Below, one piece after another: positions 1 to 7,085 of a stretch of 7,085 bases of DNA. A program made the translations under genes and the position numbers. This DNA comes from a virus (taxonomy: Duplodnaviria > Heunggongvirae > Uroviricota > Caudoviricetes), in the IMG/VR virus record IMGVR_UViG_2711768059_000002; one strand, given 5' to 3'. Numbering within the stretch: position 1 is the stretch's first letter; each line of letters begins with the position of its first letter. A model generated the notes under the pieces. It did no database searches and was not told where the DNA came from. It saw nothing but the letters and a program-made list of their open reading frames with translations.

Positions 1-2325
1 ACTGTTCCCTGAATTATTTATATCCCTGACAACAATTTCACCAGAAGCGTTAGCGGCCCTTAGTTCAGTTTGATCGACAACCGGACCTCCTTCGGATTGT
101 AATCTTTGAGAAACAAATGTTCTGTTTGAAACGTCCGTACCATACGCGGTGAAAGATTGTGTTGCTTTAATCTGACCATTGTTTACAAATATAGGAATAG
201 TGACGGTAAAATTTTTGTCAAAACTCAGGCCATTTGTTAATGCAATCCTTTCTGACACCCCTTGTCTGAACGGAAGGTTGCTGTAGAAGCCATGTTCACC
301 GCCAGTGAAGTCAAGAACATTTTTAACAAAGTTCTTGTCGTTATCCTCCGTTGACGTTGATACACCAAACTTATATCTAACCCCGTTGTCACCAATTACG
401 TAGTCTTCTGTTGGAACCTTAACTTTCGCCTTGTAGCCAGTTTGCACAACGACAGGAAAAGCGCTTTTATGGATGTAGAAAGCTACATGCTGCGCATAAT
501 CTCTTTGCGACGCTTTAATGCAAAGTATCCCGAGTTCATTTTTTTCATAGCAAACAAATGACCCGTAAGCCACATCGCGAACGTCACTCCAGCCACCACA
601 TCGAATGAACCCAAAAAATGAGTTACTATTAAGCGGATTTGATGCCGGACCTCCTGCTGTTTTTATTTCAACAGGACATAACATAGCACCGCTCCCATTC
701 ATTGCGGATGTGTCTATTATGACAGGGTAGTATTTGCCATCCACTGCACCACCAGGGGCATTAAGGGTCATCGCTTTTGTTAATCCACCCTCAGGGATTT
801 GCAAATTAGTTTTGGCGTCATCAAGGCTATTTGCGCCAGTGCCACCATGAGAAACATCAAGCGGTATCCATTTTTTTTGTGTGTCGCTGTAACACCCCCA
901 TGTTGATCCGGTTAAACCCAGGCGCATGGATTTATCATGGTTATATAACCATGTTTCGCTATTCCATTGGTCAAGACGGTCCACTTCATTTTTGCGAGCG
1001 TGGCGTGTCCATTGCGGGCCTGTTGTCGGATTCCAGCGATAAGTATAAAGCGAGCGCGTAGCCCATCCCTGAAATACACCTGTATACGCTGGAGTTCCAT
1101 CTACCTGACTAATAAACCCCGTAAGACTGCTTTCACCGGATGCAATCGATGGAAAGCCTTTTGCATTACTCATAATGCGCATAAATCCGATATACCCTGA
1201 TGGGTTGCCGGAAATATCAGGACAATCACGCGGGGCTGAGCCAAGACCGATATTATCGCCAACAATTACTTGCGCCTGGTTGCGATAATTAAGTGCGTCC
1301 GCCGCAGATTTCGCCGCGTTTGTTTCACTGGATTTAGCATTAGTTTCGCTGGCTTTAGCGTTTGTTTCGCTGCTCTTTGCTGCTGCCTCGCTATTTTTCG
1401 CGTTGGTTTCTGATTTTTTGGCTGCTGTCGCGGAGTTTGCCGATGCAGTTTGTGAGTCTGCTGCCGCCTGTGCGCTGTTATCCGCATTCGTCTCAGACGT
1501 TTTTGCGGCCTTCGCGGAATTTCCTGCCGCCGTTGCCGAGGAAGCTGCACTACTGGCACTTGATGATGCGTTCGTTTCTGATGATTTTGCCGCCTCTTTT
1601 GAGGCCGCCGCATCCCTGGCTGAGGTGGCAGCTTCTGACGCTTTCGTGGTCGCGGTGGATGCAGAAGTGGCGGCTGATTGTTCTGACGCTGCCGCATTCG
1701 TTTCTGACGTTTTCGCCGCACCGGCACTGGTAGCCGCCGCGCTTTTTGAGGACTCTGCAGCGGCAGCACTTTTTGAGGCTTCAGTGGCCTTTGTTGATGC
1801 CGTTCCTGCGCTGGAAGACGCTGACTGAGCCGACGACGCGGCCTGCCCGGCTGATGTGCTGGCTGCACGTGCTGAGCCTGTAGCATCAGTCGCATGGGTT
1901 GCCGCCTCACGGGCTGATGTGCCGGCATCGCTGGCTGACTTCTTCGCGGCTGCCGTGTCCTGTGCCACTGCGGACGCGTTACGCGCCACCTCTTCCACCA
2001 TCAGTTCAAAGCGGCGCAGTGCCTCCGGACGGGCATCATCCTCCGTCATGGCACCGAGAAAATCATTCAGCGTACCCGGTTGTGAGTCTTCATACACGGT
2101 GATGGTCCCGGCATGCGATGGCGGGAAGCCTTCCACCAACAGAATAACGCTGTACTGACCGTACTCAACGTCCATGCTGTAACGCCCTGCTTCATCCGGA
2201 TTTTCAGATGCCACCGTGTTCACCACCACCGTGGTGCTGTTACGTTTTGCTTTCAGCTGGATTGTGCAGTTCTGTACCGGTTTACCTGCACCGTCTTTCA
2301 GTACACCTGAAATCTTTACTGCCAT
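1..2325 (-). CDS. stf: Side tail fibre protein (lambda Stf-like), N-terminal 775 codons; the C-terminus and stop codon lie beyond the window start
   Basis: Hand translation of the minus strand from ATG at 2325..2323 gives MAVKISGVLKDGAGKPVQNCTIQLKAKRNSTTVVVNTVASENPDEAGRYSMDVEYGQYSVILLVEGFPPSHAGTITVYEDSQPGTLNDFLGAMTEDDARPEALRRFELMVEEVARNAS..., which matches the lambda Stf N-terminus as I remember it. The frame stays open for all 775 codons to position 1; I spot-checked codon by codon at 1..240, 790..900 and 1201..1320, and residue numbering stayed consistent (V355 at 1261..1263). A GGGGTG Shine-Dalgarno-like motif sits 3-5 nt upstream of the ATG (plus 2329..2334). Not in the ORF track because no stop is in the window. 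An Ala/Ser/Thr-rich shaft follows the N-terminal domain, then a different, lower-GC distal region. Confidence 0.9.
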   Translation of the reverse strand, partial: MAVKISGVLKDGAGKPVQNCTIQLKAKRNSTTVVVNTVASENPDEAGRYSMDVEYGQYSVILLVEGFPPSHAGTITVYEDSQPGTLNDFLGAMTEDDARPEALRRFELMVEEVARNASAVAQDTAAAKKSASDAGTSAREAATHATDATGSARAASTSAGQAASSAQSASSSAGTASTKATEASKSAAAAESSKSAAATSAGAAKTSETNAAASEQSAATSASTATTKASEAATSARDAAASKEAAKSSETNASSSASSAASSATAAGNSAKAAKTSETNADNSAQAAADSQTASANSATAAKKSETNAKNSEAAAKSSETNAKASETNAKSSETNAAKSAADALNYRNQAQVIVGDNIGLGSAPRDCPDISGNPSGYIGFMRIMSNAKGFPSIASGESSLTGFISQVDGTPAYTGVFQGWATRSLYTYRWNPTTGPQWTRHARKNEVDRLDQWNSETWLYNHDKSMRLGLTGSTWGCYSDTQKKWIPLDVSHGGTGANSLDDAKTNLQIPEGGLTKAMTLNAPGGAVDGKYYPVIIDTSAMNGSGAMLCPVEIKTAGGPASNPLNSNSFFGFIRCGGWSDVRDVAYGSFVCYEKNELGILCIKASQRDYAQHVAFYIHKSAFPVVVQTGYKAKVKVPTEDYVIGDNGVRYKFGVSTSTEDNDKNFVKNVLDFTGGEHGFYSNLPFRQGVSERIALTNGLSFDKNFTVTIPIFVNNGQIKATQSFTAYGTDVSNRTFVSQRLQSEGGPVVDQTELRAANASGEIVVRDINNSGNS
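1297..1965 (-). repeat. Low-complexity Ala/Ser/Thr-rich coding repeat region of the Stf shaft (about aa 121-343), including five tandem 21-nt heptad units at 1309..1413
   Basis: Hand translation shows repeated K-x-SETNA motifs (KTSETNAAAS, KSSETNASSS, KTSETNADNS) and, at aa 305-339, five consecutive heptads SETNAKN / SEAAAKS / SETNAKA / SETNAKS / SETNAAK. These correspond to imperfect 21-nt tandem copies such as AGCGAAACAAACGCTAAAGCC on the minus strand. The Ala-rich plus-strand ORF 1403..1828 and the Arg/Gln/Pro-rich minus ORF 1266..1928 in the track are alternative-frame readings of this same repeat. Confidence 0.7.
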
Positions 2326-2334
2326 ATTCACCCC

Positions 2335-2363
2335 ACAAAAAAGCCCGCCTGAACCGGCGGGCT
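2335..2363 (-). terminator. Putative Rho-independent terminator downstream of lom (minus-strand orientation)
   Basis: Plus 2342..2349 (agcccgcc) pairs with 2356..2363 (ggcgggct), giving an 8-bp GC-rich stem with a 6-nt loop (2350..2355). On the minus-strand transcript the hairpin is followed by a U-tract (plus a-run 2337..2342, read as UUUUUUG). It lies between the lom stop (2390..2392) and the stf start (2325). The plus-strand orientation has no U-tract. Confidence 0.6.
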
Positions 2364-2389
2364 GTCATAACACTGTGTTACCTGGCTAA

Positions 2390-2989
2390 TCAGAACTTAT
2401 AACCGACACCCACGATGAAACCGTCAGTGCGCCAATCGCCACTGCCGGAGCCTTCATAAACAATATCAATGGCCACGGATTCGGTCGGGTTAAACTGCAC
2501 GCCAGCCCCCCACGCCAGAGACGTGTTGCTGCGGCGACCGTCATCACTTCCGGTCAGCACTTCGTGCGTTTTCCCCTTGTTGTCAGTTACGCGGAGATAA
2601 TCCCCGGAGAAAGTCGAAATACGGCTGTAAGCCACACCCGCCATCGCATACGCGCTGAACCATTCATTCACGCGCACAGACGGCCCCGCCATCACGCTGA
2701 ACCAGCGGTTACGCACGGAATCTTCATGCCAGCGGGTATCGCTGTAATGAGTCAGCTGGCGATTCTTGTCTTCTGCATAGCTGAATGACGTCACCATCCC
2801 CAGCGTGTCCGTAAACTCATAACGGTATTTCACGTTAATCCCGTTAAGATCATCGCTGCCGGGAACGTTCGTCGAGGCATGAAGATACCCCGCGCTCAGC
2901 GTGGACTGATGTTCAGACGCCCATGCAGGCGCACCGGATACGGCCAGACAGATGGCTGCGGACAAAATGGCGGCATAAAGTTTACGCAT
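2390..2989 (-). CDS. lom: Outer membrane protein Lom (Ail/Lom/PagC/OmpX family eight-stranded beta-barrel), 199 aa
   Basis: ORF track 2390..2989 on the minus strand. N-terminal signal peptide MRKLYAAILSAAICLAVSGAPAWA with an AxA cleavage motif; C-terminus ends in the aromatic YKF typical of outer-membrane beta-barrels. The sequence matches lambda Lom as I remember it. ATG at 2989..2987 is preceded by GAGAGG (plus 2995..3000), 5 nt upstream. An in-frame TAA further upstream rules out a longer N-terminus. Position immediately after J is the canonical lambda location. Confidence 0.93.
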   Translation of the reverse strand: MRKLYAAILSAAICLAVSGAPAWASEHQSTLSAGYLHASTNVPGSDDLNGINVKYRYEFTDTLGMVTSFSYAEDKNRQLTHYSDTRWHEDSVRNRWFSVMAGPSVRVNEWFSAYAMAGVAYSRISTFSGDYLRVTDNKGKTHEVLTGSDDGRRSNTSLAWGAGVQFNPTESVAIDIVYEGSGSGDWRTDGFIVGVGYKF

Positions 2990-3055: not shown

Positions 3056-6457
<3,402 letters not shown>

Positions 6458-6514: not shown

Positions 6515-7085
6515 TCAGCGACCAATCACCACAACCTGACCACCGTCCCCTTCGTCTGCCGTGCTGATCTCCTGAGAAACCACGCGTGACCCCACGCGCA
6601 TTTCCCCGTACAGAACAGGCAGAACATTGCCCTGGGCAACCATGTTATCCAGTGACGAGAAATAGGTGTTCTGTTTGCCGTTATCTGTACTTGCTGCCGT
6701 GGGCGTCCTGGCTTTCGGTGCCAGCATCTGCGCCACTCCGCCCAGGATCATACTGGCCCCTGCCGCATACATGCCCGATACAGCCGCGGCACCCAGCCAG
6801 CCCACAGGGTTCCACCATGCCACCGCAATCAGCGCCGCCCCCAGCACCACCTGAAACACACCGCCACTTTTAGCTCCCGCCAGACGCGGCACGATGTGGA
6901 TCACGGCACCATTTGCCAGCGGCTCATTAAGACGGGCAGACAATTCGGTTTCACCTGCATCACGCCCGGCAATGCGTACCTGGTACCAGCCGTCGCTCAG
7001 TTTCTGACGAAACGCCGGGTTCTGCATGGCCAGCGCCCGGATGGCTTCGGACCCCGTTTTCACTCGAAGGTCGATGCGGCGGCCA
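6515..7085 (-). CDS. I: Tail assembly protein I, C-terminal portion; the 5' end lies beyond the window end
   Basis: ORF track 6515..7063 on the minus strand. The M shown at 7063 is a GTG codon that is internal Val; the frame stays open to the window edge and translates as ...GRRIDLRVKTGSEAIRALAMQNPAFRQKLSDGWYQVRIAGRD...SQEISTADEGDGGQVVVIGR. This matches the C-terminal part of lambda gpI as I remember it, and the position immediately upstream of J fits. Confidence 0.88.
   Translation of the reverse strand, partial: GRRIDLRVKTGSEAIRALAMQNPAFRQKLSDGWYQVRIAGRDAGETELSARLNEPLANGAVIHIVPRLAGAKSGGVFQVVLGAALIAVAWWNPVGWLGAAAVSGMYAAGASMILGGVAQMLAPKARTPTAASTDNGKQNTYFSSLDNMVAQGNVLPVLYGEMRVGSRVVSQEISTADEGDGGQVVVIGR

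Follow-up and report, generated by a model that had tools for sequence, protein, structure and literature searches.

A lambda-like side tail fibre gene with distal modules of the L-shaped tail fibre type in a 7,085-nucleotide stretch of caudoviral DNA

We have identified a mosaic side tail fibre (stf) gene at one edge of a 7,085-nucleotide (nt) stretch of caudoviral DNA, IMG/VR record IMGVR_UViG_2711768059_000002, the whole of which is referred to here as the window. The gene very probably comes from a lambda-like Escherichia coli prophage or phage, of whose side tail fibre gene the window contains the 5′ two-thirds; it belongs to the mEp460 stf allele family and is mosaic with distal modules of the L-shaped tail fibre (LTF) type. 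Its frame starts with an ATG at 2325 (MAVKISG...; MAVKISGVLKDG...) and runs for 775 codons with no stop up to base 1; running off the window edge is the reason that it is missing from the list of open reading frames (ORFs). The original prediction, made by a model from the letters of the window, had described a mosaic side tail fibre over 1-1296, a span equivalent to amino acids (aa) ~344-775 of the fibre protein. Its central claim, a lambda N-terminus joined to a distal region without similarity to lambda Stf, is borne out by a PF08400 N-terminus (E 7e-72) and by a distal region that is lower both in GC and in GC at third codon positions (GC3). Judged from its sequence, the gene belongs to the lambda Stf family by its attachment module only, and the features of a lambda-type distal tip, His-x-His (HxH) repeats and dependence on Tfa, appear to be absent from it.

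The lambda-like part is well delimited. When the 775 residues were compared with lambda orf-401 by BLASTP, identity was 87% over aa 1-284 with no match further on, and BLASTN to lambda (87%) was confined to window 1484-2517. Within this part, aa 1-94 are identical at 88 of 94 positions (93.6%) to Ur-lambda gpStfN, which has been resolved by cryo-electron microscopy (PDB 9e7m; PMC12617516). The lambda alignment collapses right behind the KTSETN codons at gene nt ~840 (window ~1485, aa ~280), and about ten other lambdoid phages among the matches listed lose homology at query 5596-5602, which is window ~1484-1490. Lambda likeness had first been drawn as far as aa ~340; it ends ~60 residues earlier, and foreign sequence that is not repetitive sets in at window 1252 (aa 359). 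A separate comparison of aa 282-775 with lambda orf-401, orf-314 and the six-frame stf-tfa DNA gave no significant match (best E 0.005, in a low-complexity repeat), and the distal part gave none to orf-314 (E of at least 1.5). HxH motifs, noted from the start as missing from the visible 775 codons, number 0 in the window protein and 0 in its full-length relatives, against 8 in lambda orf-314.

The distal DNA matches fibre genes of unrelated virulent phages. Megablast of window 1-1296 returned mEp460 at 98.5% over the full query ('side tail fiber protein'). It also matched, at 85%, the virulent Nonagvirus FritzHoffmann (Bas20), where the gene is annotated 'lateral tail fiber protein', and, at 81%, the tail fibre gene of slur09, a T5-like Tequintavirus, as well as part of the Stf of the lambdoid PhiR70_1. 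Homology to the LTF genes of FritzHoffmann and of slur09 begins at one common base, window 1252, which is the start of IGLGSAPRDCPDISGNPSGY, and this motif comes after the repeat shaft in all three phage families (window-type, FritzHoffmann and slur09). From that point homology covers window 2-1252 in FritzHoffmann (85% nt identity) and window 979-1252 (88%) and 5-850 (77%) in slur09. The slur09 homolog was taken to be the LTF of that phage because it lies directly behind a gene annotated 'collar tail protein for L-shaped tail fibre attachment'. At the protein level, mEp460 Stf aa 320-1175 are 78.6% identical to FritzHoffmann LTF aa 192-1052, and aa 441-1183 are 69.7% identical to slur09 LTF aa 526-1266; the whole distal ~860 residues, beyond the part in the window too, therefore fall in the LTF family. 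Distal DNA was also matched in 249 of 5426 complete E. coli genomes, with 95 covering at least 80% of the query, and these matches are mostly annotated 'prophage tail fiber N-terminal domain and S74 family endopeptidase-containing protein'. Because the distal DNA is present in these genomes and in phage mEp460, the fibre architecture is not an assembly artefact. A chimeric assembly was ruled out, as the same junctions were found in the mEp460 phage genome and in many complete chromosomes.

Between the lambda-like part and window 1252 lies a shaft of SETNA repeats that forms the junction zone. This 78-residue segment is absent from lambda and matches, at the protein level, the shafts of the FritzHoffmann LTF (from aa 318) and of slur09 (aa 204-510). 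SETNA occurs at aa 305, 319, 326 and 333, and a 21-nt tandem repeat at window 1322-1372 encodes the last three copies. Over the shaft as a whole (aa 207-337) SETNA is found seven times, the last three copies being spaced 7 residues apart. Lambda homology breaks exactly behind one SETN copy, and the slur09 shaft bears the same repeat; it is plausible that SETNA repeats are microhomology sites for fibre recombination.

The distal region itself is a patchwork of sub-modules, some of them recently exchanged with virulent phages; this is drawn from a further junction, from uneven identity to FritzHoffmann and from a cluster of differences to one representative protein. Another junction that recurs is found at aa ~508-512 (window ~795-805): up to aa 510 the PhiR70_1 Stf and dozens of database proteins are 94-96% identical to the window protein, and beyond it they diverge. 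Nucleotide identity to FritzHoffmann is 95.0% over window 726-1166 (419/441), 75.4% over 166-725 and 92.7% over 1-165. In the 1200-aa representative protein P0123, 27 of the 32 differences to the window protein crowd into aa 353-440, a hypervariable patch in the first distal module, and there is no mismatch over aa 474-775. The Stf of PhiR70_1 (L006 3964-6456, 830 aa) is a natural short variant: its aa 1-512 are 95% and its last 155 residues, the S74 chaperone, 88% identical to mEp460 Stf, and its middle is a different, much shorter segment, which suggests that a cassette lying between the chaperone and the aa ~510 junction was exchanged in frame.

Full-length relatives of the fibre are known. 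Across the 775 residues of the window protein, identity is 97-98% to the mEp460 Stf (1202 aa), to an fS58a prophage protein (1200 aa) and to a D3 prophage protein (1181 aa), and window ~143-1092 contains an exact DNA match of 950 nt to mEp460. With 775 open codons in the window and 1181-1202 aa in these relatives, against 774 aa for lambda Stf, the earlier expectation of a protein of at least 775 aa that is longer than lambda Stf proved right. We infer that the window gene's own 3′ end resembles that of these relatives. A Peptidase_S74 domain (PF13884, E 1e-12) lies at aa ~1057-1110 of the mEp460 and D3 proteins; it falls outside the 775 visible residues, the gene being cut by the window edge, and is carried by the 97-98% identical relatives. 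Just ahead of it, at aa 1056-1060 of mEp460, D3 and fS58a, stands NQSSDRDLKDD, and the motif SS↓DR..K is conserved in mEp460, D3, fS58a, FritzHoffmann, slur09 and PhiR70_1. A Ser-Asp motif of this kind (..SS↓D(R/K)xxK..) is the autocleavage signature of intramolecular chaperones (motif logic in PMC4728585).

A tfa chaperone gene had been expected next to the fibre, and this expectation failed: no intact copy is present in the closest full-length relatives, which carry the S74 chaperone instead. After stf, no tfa is annotated in mEp460 and D3, and only a truncated tfa pseudogene is annotated in fS58a. By tblastn, a relic of lambda Tfa aa 147-192 (~45 codons) was found directly after the stf stop in three of the four genomes examined, namely fS58a, mEp460 and PhiR70_1, with 89-91% nt identity to lambda in mEp460 and fS58a. 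A fibre with its own S74 chaperone would need no separate Tfa, which would account for the missing tfa. The relic is annotated as a pseudogene in fS58a only, and fS58a has three more weak Tfa-like fragments downstream (14129-14224, 14869-14940 and 14946-14984).

These relatives also bear on whether the gene is functional. It is unlikely that it is an inert remnant in a defective prophage that makes no functional fibre, like the dispensable frameshifted stf of laboratory lambda. Stf is indeed dispensable for lambda plaque formation (PMC3945230, PMC12617516), the 3′ end lies beyond the window and many database copies are listed as partial; yet 775 codons are open, intact 1181-1202-aa versions are conserved at 95-99% in the viable phage mEp460 and in many genomes, and the partial entries stand mostly on very short contigs (the longest 1-2 kb for the top matches).

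We modelled the distal region with AlphaFold2 (AF2). A first monomer model of aa 344-775, built from a 24-sequence alignment, had a predicted local distance difference test (pLDDT) of 54 overall and of 85-95 for aa ~363-453. Foldseek with this low-confidence model gave weak matches to the R2 pyocin fibre 6ct8/6cl6 (E 8e-4 to 3e-3, low TM-scores) and to phi812 baseplate proteins; the pyocin knob matches agree with the NCBI name of some homologs, 'pyocin knob domain-containing S74 family peptidase', and weakly support a putative knob domain of the R2 pyocin PA0620 type at aa 363-453. For aa 511-775, a word-indexed search gave only 5 short partial proteins and no added alignment depth, and an exhaustive search of representatives was used instead; this yielded 105 representative clusters at E <= 1e-3. 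A second model, based on 52 of the 105 clusters, reached a pLDDT of 82.5 and a predicted TM-score (pTM) of 0.70, with a confident beta-rich domain at aa 520-685. This domain has no close solved structure and forms a divergent core flanked by highly conserved sequence; that it is a second binding domain is speculation. No Pfam family of its own covers the second distal module. Its partner domains among the 52 homologs are S74 (23), T4 Gp34_trimer (10), PF08400 (7), and also Collar and other fibre domains, and this range of partners fits the 'mobile pseudo-domains' described for tail fibres (PMC12143355).

That the distal region is an enzymatic, tailspike-like module, such as a depolymerase or deacetylase with a beta-helix, is very unlikely. 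Domain scans found no catalytic family, neither a beta-helix nor an enzymatic fold was recognised by the fold searches, and neither AF2 model shows, in the visible part, the trimeric beta-helix or enzymatic fold that had been raised for structure prediction. The window protein was also scanned against NCBIfam together with two full-length relatives, and no family was returned. The depolymerases 7vyv and 7lzj, obtained in a PDB profile search (alignment A1), were disregarded; they match via the N-terminal segment of some aligned homologs (profile 2-107) and not via the window sequence.

Base composition separates the distal region from the rest of the window. The GC content is 43.3% at 1-60, 30.0% at 181-240, 40% at 301-360, 40% at 1141-1200 and 55% at 961-1020, so that the hand counts first reported were correct within two points (32 had been given for 181-240). 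Overall GC is 44.4% in 1-1296 and 56.9% in 1297-2325, the remainder of the window having 56.3%, and the sliding profile drops from 0.63 (1651-2100) to 0.41 (1-300). Two outcomes had been named as speaking against a mosaic, a distal alignment to lambda and a flat GC profile; both were looked for and neither was found. Along the fibre, GC3 is 0.60 (aa 1-134), 0.48 (135-281), 0.43 (282-358) and 0.37 (359-775), compared with 0.63-0.67 in the neighbouring genes I, J and lom. In chi-square tests on GC3 counts the distal part differs from J (p = 4e-26) and from the lambda-like part of stf (p = 5e-5).

It could be argued that lower GC is a by-product of amino-acid composition, with an Ala-rich shaft inflating GC upstream and no foreign origin involved. 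Residues 135-358 are composed of Ala (34%), Ser (21%) and Thr (12%), GC at second codon positions in the shaft is 0.81, and the contrast between 1297-2325 and 1-1296 is in part compositional. Nevertheless, GC3 is largely free of protein composition and it falls as well; the shaft therefore exaggerates the raw GC contrast without creating it. The distal GC3 also agrees with that of homologous genes in virulent phages of 37-43% GC, the LTF gene of FritzHoffmann having a GC3 of 0.35 (flanking DNA 43% GC) and that of slur09 0.29. We consider a purely compositional origin highly improbable. A distal GC3 like that of the FritzHoffmann LTF, and unlike that of the prophage's own tail genes, fits import from a lower-GC pool.

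A rival reading, in which the distal region descends from that of lambda Stf and diverged where it stands through diversifying selection, without horizontal replacement, is effectively refuted: receptor-binding fibre parts do evolve fast, and GC3 falls gradually and not stepwise, but no residual similarity to orf-401 beyond aa ~285 or to orf-314 was found outside the low-complexity hit, HxH motifs are missing, the region is 75-95% identical in nucleotide sequence to fibre genes of unrelated virulent phages from one shared point, and the terminal chaperone system differs (S74 against Tfa), with a tfa relic remaining in relatives.

We favour a mosaic fibre in which LTF-type modules replaced the lambda-type distal part, and infer for it a trimeric state, a coiled coil, autocleavage and a class of receptor as follows. 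The collar domain (aa 1-94) would dock the fibre at the tube/tip junction, and the Ala/Ser-rich shaft (aa ~100-358) would presumably form a trimeric coiled coil as in Ur-lambda. From aa 359 on there would follow exchangeable non-lambda modules matching the L-shaped fibres of virulent siphoviruses (Nonagvirus, T5-like), which, to judge from the full-length relatives, continue to a presumed receptor-binding tip and a C-terminal Peptidase_S74 intramolecular chaperone. This chaperone is predicted to drive trimer folding and then to cleave itself at the conserved NQSS↓DRDLK. The fibre may bind a surface glycan reversibly, raising adsorption before J engages the terminal outer-membrane receptor. As to its origin, recombination, homologous or microhomology-mediated, would have taken place on the left in the repetitive shaft and on the right within tfa. 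The exchange would have swapped the lambda-type stf 3′ end and the first ~146 tfa codons for a lower-GC, self-chaperoning cassette from a pool that virulent phages share, and the tfa relic would be the right-hand scar of the replacement.

Several observations weigh against this account. The window stops at aa 775, and what is said of the tip, of the S74 domain and of the missing tfa comes from relatives. The evidence for the direction of the transfer consists only of GC3 and the tfa relic. GC3 already declines within the lambda-like shaft (0.48) and does so gradually, with no single step, and composition alone therefore marks no one sharp breakpoint. The relatives vary at their extreme C-terminus, that of D3 being unlike that of mEp460, and tblastn found no tfa relic in D3; the end of the locus was therefore reworked more than once. 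FritzHoffmann was isolated on K-12 lacking O-antigen (PMC8594841), so that its homologous fibre is not required there. The archetype of L-shaped tail fibres is pb1 of T5. In a PDB sequence search with the full-length mEp460 protein (E <= 0.01), the solved T5 pb1 tip was not matched, the matches being the lambda collar 9e7m and the S16 gp37 chaperone 6f45. 'T5-like' therefore refers here to the LTFs of T5 relatives and not to T5 pb1, and, as sequence did not reveal the pb1 tip, the receptor may be other than the polymannose that T5 binds.

The architecture is already known, in that the window protein is 98% identical over 775 residues to the annotated mEp460 Stf (AFM76057.1) and to E. coli prophage proteins such as WP_073545343.1 and WP_128447067.1, which share the I-J-lom-stf context and have been named by the NCBI pipeline. 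Window and mEp460 differ in J, whose C-terminal, receptor-binding end is 43.6% identical between them (last 150 aa). The Ur-lambda Stf (774 aa), which is assembled with Tfa and reported to bind OmpC, is alike in its collar (93.6%), in aa 1-284 (87%), in its place after lom and in its Ala/Ser shaft; it has an HxH tip and a downstream tfa, unlike the window type, which is of ~1200 aa and whose relatives end in an S74 chaperone. The FritzHoffmann LTF (QXV79286.1, 1060 aa) is alike at 85% nt identity over window 2-1252, at 95% over 441 nt and at 78.6% in protein from the shaft end to S74. It too has a PF08400-like N-terminus, yet one that is only 35% identical, and it comes from a different phage family, virulent and with 7-deazaguanine-modified DNA; its shaft is shorter and its central cassette (window 166-725) is only 75% identical. 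The slur09 LTF (YP_009202114.1, 1272 aa) is 69.7% identical over 746 aa including S74 and shares SETNA-type repeats and the transition motif IGLG..R.C.DISG.PSGY, whereas its N-terminus is of the T5 type and unrelated to the PF08400 domain of the window.

In Ur-lambda, twelve collar copies encircle the gpV/gpM junction and give four trimeric fibres (PMC12617516), and Stf speeds adsorption and aids crossing of the unmodified O16 O-antigen (PMC11990801, PMC12617516). For T5-like LTFs it has been shown, and for small siphoviruses proposed, that O-antigen is a dispensable primary receptor (PMC8594841, PMC4728585). By analogy with these fibres, the one described here most likely serves in primary, reversible adhesion to a surface glycan, either O-antigen or lipopolysaccharide.

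Mosaicism of tail fibres across unrelated phages, lambda stf included, has been documented for decades (PMC3945230). A 2014 survey of 84 E. coli phage genomes reported no recent mosaics between temperate and virulent phages (PMC3945230). The FritzHoffmann patches of 441 nt (95%) and 165 nt (93%) satisfy its definition of a recent mosaic as '>90% identity' (PMC3945230), and it would therefore appear that the fibres of prophages and those of virulent phages are supplied by a single, present-day pool of host-range modules, which is relevant to the choice of therapeutic phages. Near-identical DNA patches shared with a virulent phage and the uncharacterised beta-rich mid-fibre domain at aa 520-685 are modest points of interest. 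The gene is also a natural example of fusion points, in the SETNA shaft and at the IGLG..CPDISG motif, between the lambda Stf N-terminus and a self-chaperoning foreign fibre. Engineered lambda particles make use of designs of this kind, in which the N-terminus is fused to foreign fibres (bioRxiv 10.1101/2022.09.30.509847).

Table 1. Positions of the fibre gene, its parts and its neighbours in the window, and of the tfa relic in relatives
Feature	Position	Strand	Basis or remark
stf-like side tail fibre gene	1..2325	minus	first 775 codons, truncated at window edge; open frame from ATG 2325 to base 1
Prophage tail fibre N-terminal domain, aa 1-134	1924..2325	minus	PF08400, E 7.4e-72, 240 bits, profile 1-134/134
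Collar domain predicted to dock on the tail, aa 1-94	2044-2325	minus	identity to Ur-lambda gpStfN
Lambda-like Ala/Ser/Thr-rich proximal shaft, aa 135-280	1486..1923	minus	BLASTN to lambda, composition
Non-lambda shaft of K(S/T)SETNA heptad-like repeats, aa 281-358	1252..1485	minus	junction zone, lambda-like to LTF-like
First distal module, aa 359-510	796..1251	minus	begins with conserved motif IGLGSAPRDCPDISGNPSGY; contains possible knob-like domain; unit common to many prophage fibres
Second distal module, aa 511-775	1..795	minus	beta-rich globular domain aa 520-685 (window 271-768); lowest GC of the gene
Intrinsic-terminator-like hairpin between lom and stf	2342..2363	minus	8-bp stem, 7 GC pairs, then T run
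lom (Ail/Lom outer membrane protein)	2390..2989	minus	ORF, 199 aa
J (central tail fibre / tip attachment protein)	3056..6454	minus	ORF, 1132 aa
Tail assembly gene I	6515-7063	minus	ORF
tfa relic in relatives	fS58a L007 13400-13537; mEp460 L001 8611-8745; PhiR70_1 L006 6493-6630		tblastn

Positions of the features are collected in Table 1. Every long ORF taken as a gene is on the minus strand, in the collinear order I-J-lom-stf. The J protein is 89% identical to lambda J overall and only 42% over its last 150 aa. Set against ~90% identity in the remainder of the protein, this C-terminal receptor-binding part (window 3056-3505) stands apart; the J of E. coli fS58a matches it at 98.7%, and GC3 within it is 0.53-0.60 compared with 0.68-0.75 further upstream in J. 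The difference is probably a second swap of a host-range module, implying a terminal receptor other than LamB. The window Lom resembles that of mEp460 (98% identity) far more than that of lambda (46.5%), and in lom DNA the lambda match is restricted to a 59-nt stretch. The hairpin between lom and stf ends 17 nt upstream of the stf ATG, and a terminator is annotated at the equivalent site in mEp460; a second terminator-like hairpin stands after J (3038-3019).

Downstream of stf in the D3 prophage (L002 8955-10854), a gene with a reverse transcriptase domain and one with a SLATT domain lie between the fibre gene and a DinI-like gene. The pair resembles a retron-type defence moron, and mEp460 has nothing in that slot. 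Within window 1-1296, the plus-strand ORFs 831-1061 and 967-1200 were regarded as frame shadows of the fibre gene. Over the shaft, the ORFs 1266-1928 (minus strand, other frame; 220 aa, Pro/Arg/Gln-rich) and 1403-1828 (plus strand; 141 aa, Ala/Phe-rich) were likewise not regarded as genes; these ORFs over the Ala-rich shaft are most likely frame shadows of GCN-rich repeats and counterparts of the annotated antisense orf206b of lambda.

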